This document shows, piece by piece, positions 1 to 9,505 of a DNA stretch of 64,000 nt. Within the stretch, counting starts at the first letter, position 1, and every line of letters begins with the position of its first letter. The notes below the pieces were generated by a model that saw nothing but the letters and a program-made list of their open reading frames with translations, ran no database searches and was not told the origin of the DNA. The translations under genes were made by a program, and so were the position numbers. This DNA comes from Thermoanaerobaculia bacterium (GTDB lineage Bacteria; Acidobacteriota; Thermoanaerobaculia; Multivoradales; Multivoraceae), in NCBI GenBank assembly GCA_963666565.1, contig OY762911.1, positions 3,232,001 to 3,296,000 of the forward strand. Reading direction: 5' to 3'.

Positions 1-473
1 GCAGCCGCTGACGCTGGTCGCGATCTTCGGCAGCGTCGTCTTCCTCGACGGGCACAACGTGGCGAGCCTGGACATGCACTCGGTGCGCGGCCGCGATCGA
101 GGACGACATCCGGGCGATGCCGAAGGGCATGCACACGCGGCTCCCGGAAGGCGGCGCCGGTCTCTCGGTGGGCCAGAAGCAGCGCCTGCTCATCGCCCGG
201 GCGCTGGCGCTCAAGCCGCGCGTGCTGCTCTTCGACGAGGCGACCAGCGCCCTGGACAACGGTTCCCAGGACGTCGTCCAGGAGTCGCTGAAGGACCTGG
301 GCGTTACCCGGCTGGTCATCGCCCACCGCCTGAGTTCGATTCGCAACGTCGACCGCATCCACGTGCTCCAGGACGGCCGCGTCGTCGAGACCGGCGGCCA
401 CGACGACCTGATGCGCCAGGACGGCGTCTTCGCGACGCTGGCCAGGCGGCAGTTGGTTCAGACGTCCGCCTGA
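1..473 (+). pseudogene. 3' remnant of an NHLM-bacteriocin-system type ABC transporter ATP-binding protein, with apparent internal deletions and a frameshift (partial at window edge)
   Basis: Frame 3 gives IEDDIRAMPKGMHT..LSVGQKQRLLIARAL..LLFDEATSALDN..IAHRLS..LARRQL (signature, Walker B, H-loop; resembles TIGR03797 C-termini). Frame 2 gives QPLTLVAIFGSV-VFLDGHNVASLDMHSVR. No Walker A or Q-loop segment lies where expected; the frame changes near 85-95. Confidence 0.7.
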
Positions 474-1672
474 GGGCTCCCGCCGGTGCGCGGCAGGCGG
501 CGGTTCAGGCCGCACCAGACCTCGTACGGCGCGACGCCGGCCCGCGCGGCCAGTTCGCCGACGTCGATCCGATCGCTCCCCTGTGAGCCGAGCAGAACGC
601 ACTCGTCTCCCACCGCGACTCCGGGAACGCCGGTGACGTCGACGGTCAGCGAGTCCATGCTGATCCGGCCCGCGATCGGGCAACGCATCCCGCGGACCAG
701 GACGTCGCCGCCGCCGAAGCCGGTGCTGAATCCGTCGCCGTAGCCGACCGGCACCAGGCCGATCGTCGCCTCAACCGGCGCCCGCCAGGTCCGACCGTAG
801 CCGACCCCGGCGCCGGCCGGCACGCGGCGCAGGTCGACGATCGGCGCCCGGACGCTCATGACCGGCCGCAGTTCTACCGCCGGCGGCGTGCCGGCAGCGG
901 CTAGCGTCGCGAGGTCGAGGCCATAGAGAGTGCCGCCGACCCGCACCGCACTCCATCGGTTTGACGTACGCCGCAGTGCGGCCGAAGAGTTCGCGAGGTG
1001 AGTGCTGACGGACCGCCGCTCCCTGGCGTCGAGAAGCTCCGCGGCGGCGGCAAAGCGGCGCTCCTGCTCGCCGGTGAAGGAACTTGCCGCGAAGTCGGAC
1101 TCGGCCAGGTGGGACATCAGCCCCGTCAGCCGGAGTTCCGGCGCGGCCCGCAGTTCCTCAAGCGCCGCCGGCCAGTCGCCCAGGTTCAGGCCCGACCGGC
1201 TCATGCCGGTGTCCAGTTCCACCACGACGTCCAGCGGCGGGCTTCTCCGGTCCGCGGCCGTGCCGCCCGCGACGCCCGGGCGGCGCCGGAGCGGAAGCCC
1301 CGGCCCCGGGAGTTTTCGCAGCCAAGCGACCCAGGCCGCGATCTGGCCCCGCCGGCAGAGTACCGGCGTCGCCTCCAGGCGGACGACCGACCTCAGATCC
1401 TCGAACGAGTCCACACCGCCGAACAGCAGCAGCGGGCCGACGCAGCCCGCCGCCCGAAGCTCCTCGACTTCGCGGATACGCGCCACCGCCAAGCCGTCGA
1501 TGCCGAGCCGCTCGAGTTCCAGGCCCACCGGGACCGCGCCGTGCCCGTAGGCGTCCGCCTTGACAACGCCGCAGACGGCCGCCCCGCCCACCGCCTCCCG
1601 CACCGCGCGCAGGTTGACGGCCAGCGCGCCGAGGTCGATCTCGACCCGCGCGACCGGGCCGATGGAGCTCAG
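458..1672 (-). CDS. alr: alanine racemase
   Basis: VEIDLGALAVN, VVKADAYGHG (PLP Lys), DTGMSR, SHLA, GVGYG, GYGDG, GRISMD. Probable CTG start overlaps the dnaB stop, with GGAGG 7 nt upstream. Confidence 0.92.
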   Translation of the reverse strand: MSSIGPVARVEIDLGALAVNLRAVREAVGGAAVCGVVKADAYGHGAVPVGLELERLGIDGLAVARIREVEELRAAGCVGPLLLFGGVDSFEDLRSVVRLEATPVLCRRGQIAAWVAWLRKLPGPGLPLRRRPGVAGGTAADRRSPPLDVVVELDTGMSRSGLNLGDWPAALEELRAAPELRLTGLMSHLAESDFAASSFTGEQERRFAAAAELLDARERRSVSTHLANSSAALRRTSNRWSAVRVGGTLYGLDLATLAAAGTPPAVELRPVMSVRAPIVDLRRVPAGAGVGYGRTWRAPVEATIGLVPVGYGDGFSTGFGGGDVLVRGMRCPIAGRISMDSLTVDVTGVPGVAVGDECVLLGSQGSDRIDVGELAARAGVAPYEVWCGLNRRLPRTGGSPQADV

Positions 1673-3168: not shown

Positions 3169-4266
3169 ATGGACCGACGAACTCCGTTCGCGCCGCCCGC
3201 CTGGCTGGCGACGGCCTGCCTGGTCCTGTTGCTCGGCGCTCCGGCCGCAGCTCAGCCGCCCGAGGGCGAGGCGACCTCCGTGCCGGCCACCGAAGCGAAC
3301 GAAGCAGAGGCGGCCGAGGAACCCCACCCCTGCGCCTCCGAGTACCTGGAGGGCCGCTCCTGGATCGACTGGCTCAACCGGGGCCTCCACCGCACCGCCT
3401 GCGAAACCGCCCTCTGGTTCGACCACCTGTTCGGCGACTACCGTCTGGACGACGAACTGGAAGCGACTCACGGGCGCGCCATGTTCGGAGTCGTCTGGGA
3501 CGAGCAGGACGGCTTCGAGGACGATCTCCGGCTCCGCGCCCGCCTGCACTTCCCGATCGCGGAGCGGCGCTTCAACGCGTTCATCGGCCGCGACGACCGC
3601 GAGGACGTGCTGGAGGACGCCCAGCGCCGCGAGGCGGCCCCCCTGCCCCGGATGTTCGACCCGGAAGAAGACGAGTGGCTGGTGGGGCTCGGCTACCGGC
3701 CGATCTCGGGCGGCGCCGGCGACCTCGACTTCGATCTCGGCATCAACTTCAAGTTCCCCATGGAGCCGTGGGTCCGCGCCCGCTACAGGCACCGCACCTT
3801 CCTCTCGGAAACCAACCTGGTCCGGTTCCGGCACACGCTGTTCTGGGAACGGGAGGACGGCTGGGGCCTGGCGACCCGGATCGACTACGAGCACGCCTTC
3901 GCCGGCGGCGCGATGCTGCGTTGGCGCGGCGCCGGCAAGGTCTCGGACCTCACGCGGGGAACCGACTGGTTCACCGAGCTGAGCTACTACCACCGCCTGG
4001 GCCGCCGGCGCGCGCTTGCCCACCAGGTCGGCGCGAACGGCGAGACCGGCGCGCCGGTACTGGTCGAGAACTGGTTCGTGCGGTTCGTCTACCGCCAGCA
4101 AATCCTCCGGGAGTGGCTCTTCCTCGAGATCGGGCCCGGCATGGCCTGGCGCCGCGAGGAACCTGGCGAACCGAGGGACTCCGTGCCCATCCTCCGGTTC
4201 GGCGTCGAGATGCTGTTCGGCGACTACCGGGGCCAGGGCACCGCGGCGCCGGTGCCGGGCCGCTAG
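3169..4266 (+). CDS. exported protein, probable outer-membrane beta-barrel
   Basis: N-terminal signal peptide, alternating aromatic beta-strands, C-terminal RFGVEMLF. Confidence 0.7.
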   Translation: MDRRTPFAPPAWLATACLVLLLGAPAAAQPPEGEATSVPATEANEAEAAEEPHPCASEYLEGRSWIDWLNRGLHRTACETALWFDHLFGDYRLDDELEATHGRAMFGVVWDEQDGFEDDLRLRARLHFPIAERRFNAFIGRDDREDVLEDAQRREAAPLPRMFDPEEDEWLVGLGYRPISGGAGDLDFDLGINFKFPMEPWVRARYRHRTFLSETNLVRFRHTLFWEREDGWGLATRIDYEHAFAGGAMLRWRGAGKVSDLTRGTDWFTELSYYHRLGRRRALAHQVGANGETGAPVLVENWFVRFVYRQQILREWLFLEIGPGMAWRREEPGEPRDSVPILRFGVEMLFGDYRGQGTAAPVPGR

Positions 4267-4492
4267 CGGCGCGGGCGGCGTCGGCGGCTGCCGCCCGTCT
4301 TGGGGCGGGAGGGGTCGGCGCCCAGGTGACGCGCGCGCTCGAGAGGAGATTGGAGGGGTTGCGCTTGCTCCGCTTCACTCGCTTCGGGCGGGCGTCGGTT
4401 GCCGGGAGGGCGCCGGCCGTCGCTCGTTCAGAGGCACCTGGACTCCGACCCCTCCCGCCCCGACTGGGCTGGACGGCGGTGCCGGGAGTCGG
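4267..4492 (+). repeat. intergenic structured element with ~27-bp imperfect inverted repeat; related copy at 18499-18584
   Basis: GGGGCGGGAGGGGTCGG (4302-4318) pairs with CCGACCCCTCCCGCCCC (4445-4461); flanks match the reverse complement of 18499-18584. Confidence 0.65.
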
Positions 4493-4548: not shown

Positions 4549-5334
4549 ATGAGCAGCACGACCACCCCCAGCGGCGAAGTGACGGTCACGGTCGGCGACG
4601 ACCTGGTCGCCGAGATCGAGATCCACCGGCCGCCGAACAACTTCTTCGACCTCGATCTGATCGGCGAACTGGCGACGGCGATCGGCGAGCTGGACGAACG
4701 GGACGACTGCCGTGCGGCCGTTCTCTGCTCGGAGGGCAAGCACTTCTGCGCCGGCGCCAACCTGAACGCGCGGCGGGACGCGACCGGCGCCGGCGGCGAG
4801 CGCCATCTGTACGACGAAGCGGTCCGGCTGTTCGACACGAAGACGCCGATCGTTGCGGCGGTCCAGGGCGCGGCGGTCGGCGGCGGCCTGGGACTGGCGC
4901 TGATGCCGGACTTCCGGGTCGCCTGCCCGGAGGCGCGCTTCTCCGCCAACTTCGCGCGCCTGGGCTTCGTCCAGGGATTCGGGCTGACCGTCACCCTGCC
5001 CCGCCTCGTCGGCCGTCAGCGGGCGATGGAGATGTTCTACACCGGCCGCCGCGTCAAGGGCGAGGAGGCGCTGCGGATCGGCCTCTGCGACGATCTCGTG
5101 CCCCAGAGCGAGGTGCGACCGCGGGCGCGGGAACTGGCCGCGGAGATCGCCACGTCCGCGCCGCTCGCCGTGCGTTCGATCCGCGAGATGATGCGCGGCC
5201 GGCTGGCCGCGGAGATCCGGACCGCCACGGACCACGAGAAGGCCGAGCAGAACCGCCTGCGGCAGACCGCGGACTTCGCGGAGGGCGTGCGGGCGATGAC
5301 GGAGCGGCGGCCGCCGCGCTTCGTCGGCGCCTGA
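4549..5334 (+). CDS. enoyl-CoA hydratase/isomerase family protein
   Basis: FCAGANL, PIVAAVQGAAVGGGLGLAL, DFAEGVRAMTERRPPRF; ATG at 4549. Confidence 0.93.
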   Translation: MSSTTTPSGEVTVTVGDDLVAEIEIHRPPNNFFDLDLIGELATAIGELDERDDCRAAVLCSEGKHFCAGANLNARRDATGAGGERHLYDEAVRLFDTKTPIVAAVQGAAVGGGLGLALMPDFRVACPEARFSANFARLGFVQGFGLTVTLPRLVGRQRAMEMFYTGRRVKGEEALRIGLCDDLVPQSEVRPRARELAAEIATSAPLAVRSIREMMRGRLAAEIRTATDHEKAEQNRLRQTADFAEGVRAMTERRPPRFVGA

Positions 5335-5371
5335 TCGGCGCCGGCCTGACGGCCGGCGCGTTCTTGTGGTC

Positions 5372-5411
5372 GCCTTCGGCGGCAAGCGGGTCAGAGGACC
5401 CGCGCACCCGG
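5372..5411 (+). repeat. REP-like palindrome (GCGGGTC-RGAR-GACCCGC-GCACCC family)
   Basis: Same motif at 8 loci in the window. Confidence 0.85.
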
Positions 5412-5434
5412 TGTGCGTCCGCCTGGAACCTGGG

Positions 5435-7363
5435 TCAGGCGCCGGCCGCCGACGCGATCAGGAAGGTCAGCCAGGCGCCCAGCCAGGCCAGGCCGTTCAT
5501 GTAGGCGAACGTGAAGGCGGGCCATCGCCAGCCTCCCGTCTCGCGCCGGATGACGGCCAGCGTCGACATGCACTGCATCGCGAAGGCGAAGTACACCAGC
5601 AGGGCGAGCGCCGAGGCCCGGGACAGGAGCGGCGGCGCGCCGCCTTCGCCGCGGCCGGCCAGCAGCACACCGAGCCCTTCGCCGCCCTCTCCCTCGTGGG
5701 CGTAGATCTGGGCCAGGGTGGCGACCATCACCTCGCGCGCGGCCTGCGAGGCGACCAGGCCGACGTTGATCCGCCAGTCGAAGTCCATCGGCGCGAAGAC
5801 GGGTTCCAGCAGCCGCCCGGCGGAGGCCGCGTAGCTCCCCTCGAGGACCATCTGCTGGTTCTCCGCGGCCGAGAGTTGCGGATCGGCCGGCCGCCGGGGC
5901 AGGTTGAGCAGAAACCAGAGGACGACGCTGGCGGCGAGGATGATCGTGCCGGCGCGGCGCAGGAACATCTTCGCCCGGTCCCAGACGCCGAGCGCGATGT
6001 CGCCGGGCCGGGGCAGCCGGTACGGCGGCAGTTCCAGGTAGAACGGCAGCGTCGCGCCTCGCAGCAGGCCGCGCTTGAAGACGGCCGCCGAGAGCAGCGC
6101 CGCGCCGGTGCCCAGGAAGTAGAGGCCGGTCAGCGACAGGCCCTGCCAGGTGAAGGGGCCGAAGGCCGGATCGGCCGGGATGAACGCGGCGATCAGCAGG
6201 ATGTAGACGGGCAGCCGGGCCGAGCAGGTTGCGAACGGCGCGACGAGGATCGTGGTCAGCCGGTCGCGCGGCGACGGGATCGTCCGGGTCGCCATGATGC
6301 CCGGAACGGCGCAGGCGTAGGAAGACAGGAGCGCGATGAAGCAGCGGCCCTCCAGCCCCACCCAGCCCATCGCGCGGTCGACCACGAAGGCGGCGCGCGC
6401 CATGTAGCCGCACGCCTCCAGGAACAGGATGACCGTGAACAGCAGCACGATCTGCGGCAGGAAGACGATCACCGCGCCGACGCCCCGGATCACGCCGTCC
6501 GCGACGAGGCGGGTCAGAGCCGTATCGGGCAGCGTCGCCAGGACCCGGTCGGCGAGCCCGTCCATCAGCCCCGAGAGGAGGTCCATGGCGGGCGTGGCCC
6601 AGGTGAAGATGGCCTGGAAGAAGAACGCGACGAACGTCAGGAAAACCGCGGCGCCGACGAACGGATGCAGCAGGAGGCGGTCCAGGCGCCGGGTCCAGCG
6701 ATTCGGTTGCGGCGACCGGCGGCGGCAGGCGCCGAGGACCTCGGCGGCCCAGGCGAAGCGTTCCTCCGGCGTCTTTGCCTCGGCGCCCCGCGCCAGGGCC
6801 GGCTTCGCCGTCCAGTCCCAGGGCTCGCTCAGCAATGCGCCGAGATCGTCGATGCCGATTCCCCGGTTGCCGACGACGCCGAGCACCGGCACGCCGAGCT
6901 GCCGCTGCAGGTCCTCGACGTCGATCTCGCCGCGCCGGGCCTTCAGCTCGTCGATCATCGTCAGGGCGACGGAGACCGGCAGGCCCAGGGCCGCCGCCTC
7001 GGCGAGCAACGGCAGGCCCCGCTCGATCGTCGTCGCGTCGACGACGACGACCACGCCGTCCGGCGGCGGCTCGCCGAAGCCGCCCCGCAGGACGCCCACC
7101 GCGACCGACTCGTCCTCCGACTGGGCTTCCAGGCTGTAGACGCCCGGCAGGTCGATCAGGCGGACCTCGCCGGCGCCGAAACGCTCGCGCAGATCGCCCT
7201 CGCGGCGGTCGACCGTGACGCCGGGGTAGTTCCCGGCCTTGGCCCGGTGGCCCGTGAGGGCATTGAACAGGGTCGTCTTGCCCGAGTTCGGCGCCCCCAG
7301 GATGGCGATGCGCTCCGGCCGGCGTGCCGCCGACGCCGACCCCAGCCGGACCAGCGCCGTCAT
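5435..7363 (-). CDS. feoB: ferrous iron transporter B
   Basis: GAPNSGKTT, GNYPGVTV, DLPGVYSL, CSARLPVY, ELPPYRLP, many TM helices; ATG overlaps the feoA stop. Confidence 0.96.
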   Translation of the reverse strand: MTALVRLGSASAARRPERIAILGAPNSGKTTLFNALTGHRAKAGNYPGVTVDRREGDLRERFGAGEVRLIDLPGVYSLEAQSEDESVAVGVLRGGFGEPPPDGVVVVVDATTIERGLPLLAEAAALGLPVSVALTMIDELKARRGEIDVEDLQRQLGVPVLGVVGNRGIGIDDLGALLSEPWDWTAKPALARGAEAKTPEERFAWAAEVLGACRRRSPQPNRWTRRLDRLLLHPFVGAAVFLTFVAFFFQAIFTWATPAMDLLSGLMDGLADRVLATLPDTALTRLVADGVIRGVGAVIVFLPQIVLLFTVILFLEACGYMARAAFVVDRAMGWVGLEGRCFIALLSSYACAVPGIMATRTIPSPRDRLTTILVAPFATCSARLPVYILLIAAFIPADPAFGPFTWQGLSLTGLYFLGTGAALLSAAVFKRGLLRGATLPFYLELPPYRLPRPGDIALGVWDRAKMFLRRAGTIILAASVVLWFLLNLPRRPADPQLSAAENQQMVLEGSYAASAGRLLEPVFAPMDFDWRINVGLVASQAAREVMVATLAQIYAHEGEGGEGLGVLLAGRGEGGAPPLLSRASALALLVYFAFAMQCMSTLAVIRRETGGWRWPAFTFAYMNGLAWLGAWLTFLIASAAGA

Positions 7364-7605
7364 GCGTCGGTCCGGCGGACGCGGATCCGCCGCGCCTCGG
7401 TCCGGCGCAGGCTGAGGAGCGCGCCCCGGAGCTCGTACATCGCCGGGTCGCCCAGCGGCGCCCGGCGCACGAACCGGACCGGCGCGCCGGCGCAGAAGCC
7501 GATCTCCCGGAGCCGCCTGCTTTCGGCGCCGTCGCCGCTCACCTCGGCGATCTCCACCGGCCGCTCGTCGCGGGCGTCCGACATGTCGGCCAGGGTCCGG
7601 TCCAT
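7360..7605 (-). CDS. feoA: ferrous iron transport protein A
   Basis: RRLREIGF, RRAPLGDP, LSLRRTEA; directly upstream of feoB. Confidence 0.93.
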   Translation of the reverse strand: MDRTLADMSDARDERPVEIAEVSGDGAESRRLREIGFCAGAPVRFVRRAPLGDPAMYELRGALLSLRRTEARRIRVRRTDA

Positions 7606-7664
7606 TTCGGACCGGGAATGTACCAGTTTCCTGAACCCCGCGACGCCGGCCGCTCAGCCGGCGA

Positions 7665-7859
7665 TCAGAGGTGCGGGTGGTTCTCGCAAGTGCACTGCGC
7701 CGAATTGCTGTACTCGCAATTGCAGCCCAACTGCAGGCACGGATCGGTATCCGGGCCGGGCCCGTCAGCCCCGAAGTCTTCGCCGCCAACGACGGTCTTG
7801 GCCTCGTCCTCCGACATCGGAGTCGGCTCGTTCCCGGTCCGGTCTTTCTCGTTCGCCAT
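7665..7859 (-). CDS. 64-aa Cys-rich peptide with double-glycine leader (putative RiPP or metal-binding precursor), copy 2
   Basis: MANEKDRTGNEPTPMSEDEAKTVVGG|EDFGADGPGPDTDPCLQLGCNCEYSNSAQCTCENHPHL; SD GGAGGAG 5 nt before ATG; paralogue adjacent. Confidence 0.85.
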   Translation of the reverse strand: MANEKDRTGNEPTPMSEDEAKTVVGGEDFGADGPGPDTDPCLQLGCNCEYSNSAQCTCENHPHL

Positions 7860-7944
7860 CGCTACTCCTCCATCGGTTGGGGTTCGACGCTCGAAGGTGC
7901 GGACCGCCGGCCTGCCGACCGGCGCTCCGCCACTCAGTCGGCGG

Positions 7945-8151
7945 CTACATGGTGGTGTGCGAGTGTCCGTCGCAAGTGCATGCCGGCCCCCCATTCACCG
8001 TGCAAAAGCAGTCCGGCTCGTAGCACGGCTCCCCGCCGTCGAAGGGGTCTTCCACGGGGTCGGCATTGTTCTGCCCGCCGACGACGCCTTCGGCCTGATC
8101 GTCCGACATCGGGGTCGGCTGGTACCTGGTCCGGTCTTCGTTCTTCGCCAT
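7945..8151 (-). CDS. 68-aa Cys-rich peptide with double-glycine leader, copy 1
   Basis: MAKNEDRTRYQPTPMSDDQAEGVVGG|QNNADPVEDPFDGGEPCYEPDCFCTVNGGPACTCDGHSHTTM; SD GGAGGAGGAG. Confidence 0.85.
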   Translation of the reverse strand: MAKNEDRTRYQPTPMSDDQAEGVVGGQNNADPVEDPFDGGEPCYEPDCFCTVNGGPACTCDGHSHTTM

Positions 8152-8219
8152 CGCTTCTCCTCCTCCGGTTAGGGGTTCCACACTCGAAGAGTCGACCTCA
8201 GGCTGGCCCGTCCAAGAGA

Positions 8220-8280
8220 CGGTGAAGTACCTGTTAGGTGAGACTATACACGTGGTTTCTGATTCCAGAGACATTTCTGG
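8220..8280 (-). promoter_or_regulatory. putative promoter of the peptide genes with a palindromic operator-like site
   Basis: Locally AT-richer; TATAGT on the minus strand (~8243-8248); CCAGA-N6-TCTGG palindrome at 8265-8280. Confidence 0.4.
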
Positions 8281-8344
8281 GGCGGTTCGGGGGATGCGAC
8301 GCCGGGACGTGCCGCTGGCGGCGACTGGCGCGCCGTGTCGGGAA

Positions 8345-8620
8345 CCGTGGTGCCGGAGGCGGGAGTCGAACCCGCATGGCCTAAGAGGGGCGCGGGAACG
8401 GGGCAAGTCCCCGCAGGGGACGTGCATGGCCGGGAGCCGTGGTGCCGGAGGCGGGAGTCGAACCCGCATGCCCTCAGAGAGGCGCGGGAACGGGGCAAGT
8501 CCCCGCAGGGGACATGCATGGCCGGGAGCCGTGGTGCCGGAGGCGGGAGTCGAACCCGCATGCCCTAAGAGGGGCGCGGGAACGGGGCAAGTCCCCGCAG
8601 GGGACATGCATGGCCGGGAG
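8345..8620 (-). repeat. three tandem 92-bp units, each containing the 3' ~45 nt of tRNA-Leu (tRNA-linked repeat)
   Basis: CCGTGGTGCCGGAGGCGGGAGTCGAACCCGCATG begins at 8345, 8437, 8529 and 8621 (the last is the real tRNA end). Confidence 0.95.
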
Positions 8621-8623
8621 CCG

Positions 8624-8712
8624 TGGTGCCGGAGGCGGGAGTCGAACCCGCATGCCCTCAGAGAGGGCGGAGGATTTTAAGTCCCCTGCGTCTGCCGTTC
8701 CGCCACTCCGGC
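8624..8712 (-). tRNA. tRNA-Leu(TAA)
   Basis: GCCGGAG acceptor, GGGGA-CTTAAAA-TCCTC anticodon arm, long variable arm, GGTTCGACTCC, CCA. Confidence 0.96.
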
Positions 8713-8735
8713 TCTTGCGGCACCAACGGGAAGTC

Positions 8736-8810
8736 TGGAGGCGACGGCCGGATTCGAACCGGCGAATAAGGGTTTTGCAGACCCTCGCCTTACCACTTGG
8801 CCACGTCGCC
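8736..8810 (-). tRNA. tRNA-Cys(GCA)
   Basis: GGCGACGTGGCCAAGTGGTAAGGC..CTGCAAA..GGTTCGAATCC..CCA. Confidence 0.97.
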
Positions 8811-8852
8811 TCTGAGGGACTTCGCCGCCGGTCGCGCCCGGCATGGATCGCA

Positions 8853-8927
8853 TGGAGCGGGAAACGGGATTCGAACCCGCGACCCCAACCTTGGCAAGGT
8901 TGTGCTCTACCACTGAGCTATTCCCGC
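8853..8927 (-). tRNA. tRNA-Gly(GCC)
   Basis: GCGGGAATAGCTCAGTGGTAGAGC..TTGCCAA..GGTTCGAATCCC..CCA; classic Gly-Cys-Leu cluster. Confidence 0.97.
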
Positions 8928-9085
8928 GCCCGAGCGAACCGAACCGTGCAACCGGCGGGCCCTGAAGCCGCGAGGATACGGCCCTCCTCTGGACAGTGTC
9001 AACTCGCGGGCGGCTCCGGACCGCCGGGGGCGGCGCCGCCACCGGCGAGCGGCATCGTTCGCGGACGGTCGACCCGCCCGGCGGG

Positions 9086-9505
9086 TCAGAGCCAACTTCG
9101 GCGACCGGCGTCGTCCACCGTGAAGGCGTCCCGAAAGTGGGTGAAGGTCCAGGCGCCCTCGTCCTCCGACCAAGTCGCGGCGACCACGTCGAAACGGCAG
9201 GGGCCGTGCCGGAGCGCCGACCGCTCCGGCTGGCAGAGGAAGGCCTCGGCGGCCCGGACCAGGCGGCCGCGCTTGCGGCGGTCGACCGCCGCGGCGCCGC
9301 CGCCGAAGCGCGGGTCGAACCGCGCCTTGACCTCGACGAAGCAGAGCGTGGCGCCGTCCATCGTGATCAGGTCGATCTCGCCGACCGGCGAGTCGAAGTT
9401 CCGCTCGAGGATCCGGTGGCCGCCGGCGCGCAGCAGTTCCGCGGCCGCGTCTTCGGCCTCCGCGCCGCTCAGGCGCGGCGGCGATTCCCGCCCGGCGCGC
9501 GCCAT
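9086..9505 (-). CDS. YraN/UPF0102 family protein
   Basis: GAEAEDAA, ILERNF, GEIDLI, FVEVKAR, RFDVV. Confidence 0.93.
   Translation of the reverse strand: MARAGRESPPRLSGAEAEDAAAELLRAGGHRILERNFDSPVGEIDLITMDGATLCFVEVKARFDPRFGGGAAAVDRRKRGRLVRAAEAFLCQPERSALRHGPCRFDVVAATWSEDEGAWTFTHFRDAFTVDDAGRRSWL

Follow-up and report, generated by a model that had tools for sequence, protein, structure and literature searches.

Tandem peptide genes at the locus

The stretch analysed here (the window, 64,000 nt) carries two small paralogous genes on its minus strand, each with its own untranslated leader region and followed by a potential hairpin:

7945..8151, minus strand: P0002 precursor, 68 aa
7665..7859, minus strand: P0001, a paralogue with the same architecture as P0002, 64 aa
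8152..8189, minus strand: 5' UTR of P0002 with GGAGGAGGAG ribosome-binding site, conserved, the duplicated counterpart of 7860-7896
7860..7896, minus strand: 5' UTR of P0001 with GGAGGAG ribosome-binding site, conserved
7901..7928, minus strand: hairpin 3' of the P0002 stop codon, GC-rich, 8-bp core stem, without U tract (z -2.0)
7641..7667, minus strand: hairpin overlapping and following the P0001 stop codon, GC-rich (z -1.1)

The two open reading frames are exactly as a preliminary description of this DNA had given them, namely paralogues of 64 and 68 aa with a strong Shine-Dalgarno sequence and a 26-aa leader ending in VVGG, and the acidic Gly/Pro spacer and scaffold of five Cys and two His that it described are present in both products. 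In P0002 the leader is followed by a 16-aa acidic Pro/Gly linker and then by the C5H2 module (C43, C48, C50, C58, C60, H63 and H65). P0001 and P0002 share 40% identity (26/65, BLASTP E 9e-15), and the columns invariant between them read MA..DRT...PTPMS.D.A..VVGG in the leader and P-C-x4-C-x-C-x7-C-T-C-x2-H-x-H in the tail. Their DNA is 81% identical across the 115 nt of 5' UTR and leader, and alignment at the DNA level is lost in the cores. Both genes have the GGAGGAG ribosome-binding site 6-8 nt 5' of the ATG, and their GC values by codon position (0.60/0.49/0.83 and 0.61/0.49/0.86) are the coding signature of a 70% GC genome. Both products are also recorded as called proteins in public collections. 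These results confirm that P0001 and P0002 are real paralogous genes.

The hairpin behind P0002 may serve as an attenuator or stabiliser, weakly supported at this z value, while the one at the end of P0001 is no better than shuffled sequences. A promoter scan found no sigma-70-like site at the locus, and the two terminator-like matches there are on the wrong strand, inside P0002. Rfam matched three tRNAs only in the interval 7300-9100 of the window, with no match in the conserved UTRs. A candidate IdeR- or Fur-like box 5' of P0002, sought by eye, came down to the half-site-like TTAGGT and was rejected, the linkage to feoAB being accidental.

Distribution and conservation of the family

The preliminary description did not recognise the family, and indeed neither Pfam nor NCBIfam contains one that matches the peptides. 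When five members were scanned against Pfam at E up to 10, none (0/5) matched any family, Bowman-Birk inhibitors and metallothioneins included. Outside P0001 and P0002, nine further clusters at 90% identity were found, all metagenomic, giving a total of 11 clusters from collections of about 15 billion proteins, and a sample of about 1,100 genomes from the same phylum contains no member. The family is rare and unnamed. Tandem paralogues recur in it: a contig of 126,140 nt is given for both P0008 and P0010, and one of 897 nt for each of P0004, P0007 and P0009. The contigs that encode P0003, P0005, P0011 and P0012 measure 43, 286, 174 and 6.4 kb.

Across the family alignment M1, P12, A20, G25, G26, the five Cys and the two His are invariant, and the linkers and inter-Cys loops vary. 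The predicted cores of P0001-P0005 have 2-8 Asp/Glu and hardly any Lys/Arg; five Cys are found in 5/5 of them, two His in 4/5 and three His in 1/5. The loop between the Cys pairs has 6 residues in four family members. Selection on the leader and cysteines, on which the preliminary description had made its reading depend, is evident: since the same set of 12-16 invariant positions is kept in homologues of other organisms, the pattern is under selection and not the product of chance.

Several other searches returned the query or noise. A word-indexed search with P0002 alone matched only P0002 itself. P0005 and P0003, run singly against genome contigs, gave either nothing or a spurious antisense match in a Bradyrhizobium LacI-type gene, and tblastn of P0003 against plasmids and phages gave no match. 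As a DNA pattern, the Cys/His motif hit at least 120 loci of CAC/TGC repeats and other noise in genome contigs, with no family member among the matches listed. The leader pattern produced one chance match in genome contigs (an antisense Gemmataceae site) and another in metagenome contigs (an internal stretch of a HAD hydrolase). The motif is undescribed in the full-text literature searched on double-glycine Cys-rich or metal-binding peptides, microcins, NHLP/Nif11 and Bowman-Birk proteins. AlphaFold2 returned no usable fold for P0002 (5-row alignment, mean pLDDT 52.1) or P0009 (11 rows, 54.6), and the ESM Atlas returned unnamed clusters only, at 0.89, below the level counted as evidence.

Leader and predicted recognition by C39 peptidases

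The consensus of double-glycine leaders, in the excerpted text of PMC3140520, is M(R/K)ELX3E(I/L)X2(I/V)XG(G/A), in which positions -4, -7 and -12 are hydrophobic and position -8 is acidic. The leader of the peptides agrees with it at G-1, G-2, V-4, E/Q-8 and M/I-12. G25 and G26 are invariant in 11/11 members. V or I stands at -4, with F in P0010 alone, while the residue at -12 varies between M, I and L and that at -8 between E, Q and D. At -7 an invariant A takes the place of the I/L of the excerpted consensus (PMC3140520). Among five members scanned, only P0001 aligned to NCBIfam NF038167 (CTB bacteriocin), below threshold (E 0.078, 13.2 bits against a cut-off of 32) and over the leader only, residues 1-32 matching model positions 1-28.

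In a complex model, the leader paired with the stand-alone C39 domain of this genome scored 0.75 against 0.05 for the best of three controls, passing a mark reached by 58/80 solved complexes and 2/110 mismatched pairs. The runs share at least 80% of contacts, with a partner pLDDT of at least 58. Peptide residues 10-15, 17 and 20-27 are predicted to contact C39 residues 61-65 (with Cys64) and 136-139 (with His138), although the pass could reflect likeness to solved C39-substrate complexes. The C39-type leader claimed in the preliminary description is supported by the fit to the consensus at -1, -2, -4, -8 and -12 and by its modelled place in the C39 active site, and we consider the N-terminus of P0001 and P0002 a putative double-glycine leader.

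The insertion site

The peptide genes stand between feoAB and a tRNA gene:

7634..8344, no strand: species-specific peptide insert, 711 nt, missing at the same site in same-genus relatives
8345..8620, minus strand: three tandem 92-nt units, each made of 47 nt plus the 3' half of tRNA-Leu
5435..7605, minus strand: feoB (~5435-7354) and feoA (7360-7605), native genes downstream of the insert

Apart from the two peptide genes with their UTRs, the insert contains only 193 nt upstream of them. The GC content of its genes and upstream part is 62-65%, compared with a genome value of 70%, and identical copies of the insert occur in contigs of three runs from three samples of one study. There is no room in the 711 nt for an immunity gene, and the lack of one beside the peptides is unusual for a toxin-type bacteriocin. 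The 92-nt units separate the insert from the true tRNA-Leu(TAA) at 8624-8712; this array is probably native and not part of the insert, since similar arrays are carried at the tRNA-Leu loci of relatives.

In relatives, feoA lies 28-69 nt from tRNA-Leu. Because same-genus relatives lack the insert, the position of the peptide pair in front of feoAB is an accident of insertion, and since the pair was inserted there, the neighbourhood is unusable as support for metal binding, which is itself possible. The feoAB genes are not part of the peptide system, and they may now be transcribed by read-through from the peptide genes. We propose that the pair was acquired horizontally, as a 0.7-kb insert beside tRNA-Leu.

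Remains of an export cassette

The preliminary description had suggested locating C39 transporters in the genome, and the remains of an NHLP-type peptidase/ABC export cassette are present 7 kb from the peptides:

1..487, plus strand: right-hand end of a second species-specific insert (whole insert G000:C1:3229689-3232487)
12-470, plus strand: C-terminal ATPase fragment of an NHLP-type ABC2 exporter (TIGR03797 positions 554-686)

Just left of the window lie an HlyD fragment, an ABC1 without its C39 domain and the membrane part of ABC2, and fragments matching TIGR03794, TIGR03796 and TIGR03797 were found at G000:3229911-3232470. This second insert contains the deletion-riddled remains of a three-gene NHLP-type bacteriocin export cassette (HlyD, C39-ABC1 and ABC2), and its DNA is absent from 9/9 same-genus relatives. 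A 7.1-kb stretch of native genes intervenes between the two inserts, made up of alr, dnaB, one unknown gene, a gene for an enoyl-CoA hydratase and feoBA. The wreck may be the former exporter of the peptides, the link being one of proximity and shared species-specificity only. The GC3 of the HlyD and ABC1 fragments is 0.93-0.96, that of the ABC2 pieces 0.81-0.90 and that of the peptide genes 0.83-0.86, a difference which counts against the explanation preferred below.

C39 matches in the genome are limited to a stand-alone peptidase of 206 aa and a stub of 24 residues. The preliminary description had assigned maturation to proteins acting in trans, but there is no intact C39-ABC transporter in this genome. 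The stand-alone peptidase (G000:1903481-1904101) is membrane-anchored and belongs to a conserved cluster of its own; its gene is a core gene of 18/18 same-genus genomes without the peptides. Seven full-length ABC exporters of the same superfamily, all without C39 domain, are also present. No NHLP or Nif11 precursor, as rival cargo, was found at cut-off in the genome. The Nif11 model matched inside a 682-aa frame with 17.8 bits (cut-off 32.3), and the match to the NHLP model is a true nitrile hydratase alpha subunit, rejected as a precursor.

Modifying enzymes

The enzyme searches covered a genome with a completeness of 97%. There were no matches to the LanC-like domain (PF05147) or to DUF692/MNIO (PF05114), and the sole YcaO match, inside a 1184-aa frame, had 17.1 bits against a cut-off of 25.7. 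Thioether or MNIO chemistry, which the preliminary description had favoured for the cysteines, thus finds no LanC-like, DUF692 or YcaO enzyme over cut-off here. Two radical-SAM/SPASM proteins are encoded, at 0.76 and 2.82 Mb, and the peptide insert has no such gene. One of them is AhbD/NirJ-like and resembles an enzyme of the heme pathway; the second is conserved in 9/9 same-genus relatives without the peptides, and a dedicated radical-SAM maturase is supported by neither. The latter protein and the stand-alone C39 peptidase are genus-wide and not dedicated to the peptides. In the family alignment there is no arrangement of Ser/Thr that matches the five Cys in a lanthionine pattern, the one semi-conserved position being the middle residue of the last C-x-C, mostly Thr or Ser. 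RiPP chemistry for P0001 and P0002 is unsupported in this genome. NHLP-type exporters often serve modified peptides, and the donor lineages may have had a dedicated modifying enzyme.

Proposed origin and possible functions

The explanation we prefer, to which we give an even chance, is that P0001 and P0002 are unmodified double-glycine export cargo, stabilised by disulfides and/or metal and stranded after loss of the exporter. The 26-aa leader would be recognised by a peptidase of the C39 type, which as a rule forms the N-terminal domain of an ABC exporter partnered by an HlyD-type adaptor. Cleavage, presumably after VVGG, would be coupled to export of an acidic peptide of 38-42 aa, in which a flexible tail of Pro, Gly, Asp and Glu bears a compact C5H2 module of 23 residues. 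Once outside the cytoplasm, the module would be held by disulfides and/or a metal ion bound to Cys and His, and not by enzyme-made cross-links; we infer the unmodified state of the mature peptide as well as its fold and function. Five Cys are an odd number for a purely disulfide-stabilised peptide. After the horizontal arrival of the pair beside tRNA-Leu, the likely exporter, the NHLP-type HlyD/ABC1/ABC2 cassette on the second insert, would have been destroyed by deletions. The cargo genes are intact but, with their likely exporter destroyed, probably stranded, and they are probably the leftovers of an acquired bacteriocin-like system.

A more detailed proposal, improbable in our view, makes the C5H2 module an enzyme-independent extracellular knot, in which two disulfides would close a hypervariable Tyr loop in the Cys register of Bowman-Birk inhibitors, and the fifth Cys together with H-x-H would hold Zn or Cu or link two paralogues as a double-headed dimer. 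If true, this family would be the first bacterial case of a metallopeptide, or of a canonical-loop protease inhibitor, with double-glycine export, and tandem paralogues would be a source of different loop specificities.

The peptides may instead be RiPP precursors. In this case the leader would bring in a modifying enzyme from another locus, of the radical-SAM thioether, lanthionine, MNIO or a similar type, ahead of C39 cleavage, and the five Cys would be cross-link sites. A conserved leader, hypervariable core and invariant Cys are the classic RiPP layout, the genome has its two radical-SAM/SPASM genes, and NHLP-type export cassettes are described, in the excerpted text of PMC3140520, as partners of modified peptides. 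One member also weakly matches TIGR04149, a radical-SAM-modified RiPP family (E 0.61), and protein-language-model neighbours at 0.84-0.86, a lead only, include lantibiotic and QH-AmDH gamma clusters. We nevertheless regard this explanation as unlikely, considering that LanC-like, DUF692 and YcaO enzymes are missing from the genome, that one radical-SAM/SPASM protein is AhbD/NirJ-like and the other is present in 9/9 relatives without the peptides, that the insert carries the two peptide genes alone, and that no Ser/Thr pattern fits the five Cys. Equally doubtful is a system that is still live, with the stand-alone C39 peptidase and a C39-less ABC exporter processing and exporting the peptides as a bacteriocin, signal or metal-binding peptide. 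The two ORFs are intact, with no loss of a ribosome-binding site or an invariant residue, the identical insert recurs in the three samples (three runs, one study), seven candidate exporters are available, and the leader is predicted to dock in the stand-alone C39 domain (0.75 against 0.05). However, the gene of that peptidase is a core gene of 18/18 same-genus genomes that lack the peptides and belongs to a conserved cluster of its own, and the exporter of the dedicated type is destroyed.

Two further explanations concern the mature module. In a secreted Bowman-Birk-like inhibitor, the reactive loop would be C-x-C-x7-C-x-C, closed by disulfide bonding and with Tyr as its P1 residue, and two paralogues would be joined through the odd Cys as a double-headed dimer. 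The sole PDB profile matches are two Bowman-Birk inhibitors (E 0.55 and 0.67) with identical Cys register, the second loop residue is Tyr in 8/11 aligned members, Pro stands two residues ahead of the closing Cys in most members, with Pro-Pro in several, and tandem paralogues recur. These E-values are non-significant, with the Cys driving the alignment, and the Pfam scan of five members matched no family at all. The Bowman-Birk loop is defined by P1' Ser and P3' Pro, which are not conserved in the peptides; four members have a 6-residue loop, and the invariant H-x-H has no Bowman-Birk counterpart. We consider such an inhibitor very unlikely. Least probable of all is a small protein of the cytoplasm, similar to metallothioneins or handling iron or other metals, that acts together with FeoAB and whose N-terminus is not a leader. 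The pair is directly upstream of feoA-feoB on the same strand, the peptide is acidic, and its C-x-C pairs with His resemble those of small bacterial metallothioneins. Against this, the linkage is accidental, the relatives having feoA 28-69 nt from tRNA-Leu and the pair having been inserted later; the most conserved part is a GG-type leader that docks in the C39 site in the model, and no metallothionein family is matched.

Comparison with known systems

Class II microcins and bacteriocins, which are exported unmodified by C39-ABC (PCAT) and HlyD-type proteins, share with the peptides a GG-terminated leader that is hydrophobic at -4 and -12 and acidic at -8, a small Cys-containing product and PCAT/MFP-type export genes in the neighbourhood. 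Their leaders, however, have 15-19 aa instead of 26, and here the mature peptide is strongly acidic with a fixed C5H2 scaffold, there is no adjacent immunity gene, the exporter is a wreck and the producer is not an enterobacterium. Among the CysRS matches listed for this genome, the best named relatives reach at most 52% identity and belong to mixed phyla, with Acidobacteriota-like lineages. Multi-Cys microcins that rely on disulfide formation are described in the excerpted text of PMC12219008.

The NHLP/Nif11 families use the same type of cassette, the three-gene NHLM cassette (TIGR03794/03796/03797; Haft et al. 2010, cited in PMC3140520). Their precursors are mostly negatively charged according to the excerpted text of PMC3140520, and the GG-terminated C-terminus of our leader is acidic. 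However, this leader is about one third as long as theirs and has no homology to nitrile hydratase alpha or Nif11; of five members scanned, none matched TIGR03793 or TIGR03798 at E up to 10. HlyD, ABC1 and ABC2 are present here as fragments only, on a separate insert 7.1 kb from the peptides. The CTB bacteriocin family (NF038167) is similar in its weak, leader-only alignment, but there is no core similarity and only one of five members aligns, at 13.2 bits against the cut-off of 32. Bowman-Birk inhibitors have the C-x-C-x7-C-x-C register, and several of the peptides have the Pro-Pro before the closing Cys. They are, however, plant proteins with 14 Cys in two subdomains, while the H-x-H tail is unique to the peptide family, in which the reactive-loop residues vary. 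Cysimiditides (Zn-tetracysteine RiPPs) are likewise small ribosomal peptides with conserved Cys, which in their case bind a structural metal, as excerpts of bioRxiv 10.1101/2024.10.02.616296 describe; in P0001 and P0002 a metal is a candidate only. Cysimiditides have two CXXCXGXG units, a PIMT-type methyltransferase in the cluster and no GG leader, whereas P0001 and P0002 have neither such units nor such an enzyme and do have a GG leader.

Significance of the locus

Peptides exported by way of a double-glycine leader form a major class of bacterial weapons and signals, of which the map is still poor. The family adds to this class a core scaffold unseen by profile libraries, with five Cys and two His in fixed register and an acidic tail. 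Should the mature product bind metal or inhibit proteases with no enzymatic tailoring, it would offer a new peptide scaffold that is easy to express. The locus is also a probable example of decay in which the export machine goes first and the small cargo genes stay intact, which should caution genome-mining efforts that score only precursors. Furthermore, feoAB shows that a neighbour can look meaningful and yet owe its position to a chance insertion next to a tRNA gene.

Peptide genes and their family

Two paralogous genes for small double-glycine-leader peptides, P0001 and P0002, represent a core family that is real, rare and new, in a kind of system already well known:

Window 7665-7859, minus strand: P0001, translated ORF of 64 aa
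Window 7945-8151, minus strand: P0002, translated ORF of 68 aa

The preliminary description of paired ORFs sharing a GG leader and a Cys/His pattern was borne out by their translations, which are 40% identical (E 9e-15), with invariant columns MA..DRT...PTPMS.D.A..VVGG in the leader and P-C-x4-C-x-C-x7-C-T-C-x2-H-x-H in the core. A GGAGGAG motif precedes both start codons. Their GC content at the three codon positions (0.60/0.49/0.83-0.86) is what real genes show in a genome of 70% GC (4.79 Mb). The 5' UTR and leader are 81% identical in DNA over 115 nt and the DNA of the cores is no longer alignable, the arrangement known as 'conserved leader, hypervariable core'. Each stop codon is followed by a GC-rich hairpin lacking a U tract; compared with shuffles, one is marginally better (z -2.0) and the other not at all (z -1.1). 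A low-depth contig from run X3 (658 nt, depth 2.9) aligns to the leader region of P0002, differing by 8 changes and a deletion of 3 nt, and, within window 7628-8159, skips 463 nt, rejoining the feoA side at 7628; it may represent a related strain with a single, diverged copy.

The family was also as unfamiliar to the databases as had been supposed. Pfam matched no family in the members scanned, and NCBIfam gave sub-threshold matches only, to CTB bacteriocins over the leader alone (13.2 bits, cut-off 32) and, for one member, to a radical-SAM-target family (E 0.61). An exhaustive HMMER search over 1.84 billion representatives returned three outside homologues, and two profile rounds in a 5.8-billion-cluster collection brought the total to nine clusters from outside (P0003-P0012), every one of them unnamed and derived from a metagenome assembly. 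Among the genomes searched, only the source genome (G000) carries the family: the best match in a first search of 60 other genomes was no better than E 0.012, and no genome but G000 matched among 300 order, 401 class and 401 phylum genomes (overlapping samples), nor did the plasmid and phage collections searched give any match.

An alignment of 11 sequences has M1, P12, A20, G25, G26, five Cys and two His as its invariant positions; linker and inter-Cys loops vary freely. Four members have a 6-residue loop, and the distant members P0011 and P0012 carry a sixth Cys adjoining the fourth. P0006, in the same 90% cluster as P0004, has Cys in place of Tyr at the second loop position, which is conserved otherwise, and so carries six Cys. 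P0003 is identical to the two window paralogues at 35/60 and 33/61 positions and these to one another at 26/64; being nearer to either than they are to each other, it indicates an old duplication with the scaffold kept in both copies. P0008 and P0010 are reported from contigs of equal length (126,140 nt), and P0004, P0007 and P0009 each from an 897-nt contig; judged by these lengths, paralogue pairs or triplets appear to recur in the family.

Genomic context

The pair lies between tRNA-Leu(TAA) and feoA-feoB, all on one strand. In 12/12 same-genus genomes DNA similarity spans the enoyl-CoA hydratase gene, feoB and feoA to window ~7631 and picks up again at the tRNA-Leu gene; in one relative, G001, ~28 nt separate the feoA-side similarity from that gene. 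BLAST against three relatives showed the same break, and in a public run a contig from another organism has positions 7633 and 8665 linked through 69 other letters.

Window 7634-8344: unique insert of 711 nt, containing only the two peptide genes, without counterpart in relatives

The insert's genes and upstream part have 62-65% GC, against 73% for feoBA. The gap from insert to tRNA holds three 92-nt units, in each of which 47 nt are joined to the tRNA-Leu 3' half; they are likely native since similar arrays occur after tRNA-Leu(CAA) 15 kb away and in relatives. Because the pair was inserted between tRNA-Leu and feoA, arguments for an iron or metal function based on feoAB fall. In the relatives feoA joins tRNA-Leu without the pair, and by this comparison the neighbourhood is an accident.

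A second species-specific block lies nearby:

G000:3229689-3232487 (ends at window ~487): second block, between purC and alr
Within it: HlyD-type adaptor fragment, TIGR03794 positions 4-43, then an in-frame stop
Within it: ABC1 fragment, positions 1-24 fused to 208-376
Within it: ABC2 membrane part, TIGR03797 positions 107-366
Within it, in a different frame: ABC2 ATPase end, positions 554-686

Its counterpart is missing in three aligned relatives, and its DNA is unmatched in 9/9 same-genus genomes. The ABC1 fusion has thereby lost its C39 domain and first helices. Together the fragments are the remains of an NHLP-type bacteriocin export cassette of three genes (PMC3140520), which no longer functions in G000. 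There are no C39-ABC transporters elsewhere in this genome, and the sole complete C39 domain is that of a membrane-anchored, stand-alone 206-aa protein at 1.90 Mb, kept in 18/18 same-genus genomes. The maturation in trans that had been envisaged is not supported in G000, which has no intact C39-ABC transporter.

The peptides are the only candidate cargo found for this cassette, a link that we infer from proximity and the shared species-specificity of the two inserts. They are separated by 7.1 kb of native genes, and GC3 is higher in the HlyD/ABC1 fragments than in the peptide genes. No NHLP or Nif11 precursor in G000 scored above cut-off: the Nif11 match was weak, and the NHLP match was rejected as rival cargo, being a genuine nitrile hydratase.

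The stand-alone C39 gene itself is part of a separate, genus-wide C39 system of three genes (G000:C1:1903164-1904597), which also encodes a thioredoxin-like protein of 168 aa and a secreted one of 106 aa; the latter combines a signal peptide with a GG motif and a tail rich in Pro and Cys. The models nearest to the membrane-anchored peptidase (206 aa) are the NHLM ABC1 N-terminus, FapD and FilB.

Leader, core and proposed function

The published double-glycine leader consensus is M(R/K)ELX3E(I/L)X2(I/V)XG(G/A) (PMC3140520). The family has G-1, G-2, V/I-4, A-7, E/Q/D-8 and M/I/L-12 at its positions, and the leader assignment was further upheld by a complex model of leader residues 1-40 (11-row alignment) with the stand-alone C39 domain of G000. 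The model scored 0.75 (best of 3 controls, 0.05), passing a mark reached by 58/80 solved complexes and 2/110 mismatched pairs, with at least 80% contact agreement between runs and partner pLDDT of at least 58. Predicted contacts involve peptide residues 10-15, 17 and 20-27, exactly the conserved leader residues, and C39 residues 61-65 and 136-139, including by hand count Cys64 and His138, which from family motifs we take to be catalytic. Since solved C39-substrate complexes exist, the pass shows likeness to a C39 substrate, not cleavage of this copy.

The tabulated cores (P0001-P0005) are acidic, with 2-8 Asp/Glu and at most one Lys/Arg, and AlphaFold gave no confident fold for family members. 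PDB profiles gave matches to two Bowman-Birk inhibitors only, neither of them significant (E 0.55 and 0.67), with alignment in the same C-x-C-x7-C-x-C register. In the peptides the second loop position is Tyr in 8/11 members, and Pro stands two residues ahead of the closing Cys in most. However, the P1' Ser and P3' Pro of the Bowman-Birk reactive loop are not conserved in them, nor did the Pfam scan yield any family for the members scanned.

RiPP chemistry, also put forward for these cores, found no support in G000 (97% complete, one contig). LanC-like and DUF692/MNIO domains are absent and nothing exceeds the YcaO cut-off. There are two radical-SAM/SPASM proteins, neither apparently dedicated: one is AhbD/NirJ-like, and the other, whose best match is unassigned and far under cut-off, occurs in 9/9 same-genus relatives without the peptides. 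Judged by gene content, nothing in this genome points to a dedicated maturase. Five Cys with H-x-H fits two disulfides plus a Cys-His-His metal site or an intermolecular disulfide, and equally an all-ligand metal cluster.

Most likely, the products of the two genes are double-glycine export cargo. Cleavage after VVGG by a C39 peptidase/ABC exporter would release an acidic peptide of 38-42 aa, and its C5H2 module (the five Cys and two His of the tail) would fold by oxidation, around a metal, or both. Candidate roles are antagonism, metal binding, inhibition and signalling. In G000 no immunity gene lies beside the pair and the exporter of the dedicated type is destroyed. The genes are probably stranded remnants; less probably, the resident C39 and another ABC exporter may still process and export the peptides.

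Other observations

The 91-92-nt tandem arrays directly follow two tRNA-Leu genes, TAA (window 8345-8620) and CAA (G000:C1:3224761-3225158), in 3 and 4.4 copies. Each unit comprises the tRNA 3' half and a ~47-57-nt spacer with a CCCCTGCGGGG hairpin; ARAGORN and Rfam called the full tRNA and nothing else. Three same-genus relatives (G001, G002 and G009) have similar arrays at the same loci, with varying copy number.

Upstream of the enoyl-CoA hydratase gene lies a dispersed repeat of ~185 nt (window 4300-4490). Across G000 there are at least 14 more copies of it at 85-89% identity, and same-genus genomes hold many others; it resembles a MITE or REP-like element. A second short one (~75-90 nt, window ~5320-5412), between that gene and feoB, has further copies in G000 and relatives (86-93% identical). 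Between dnaB and the enoyl-CoA hydratase gene, a 365-aa ORF (window 3169-4266, plus strand) is unmatched in Pfam/NCBIfam and shows 83-84% DNA identity in relatives, and is hence conserved.
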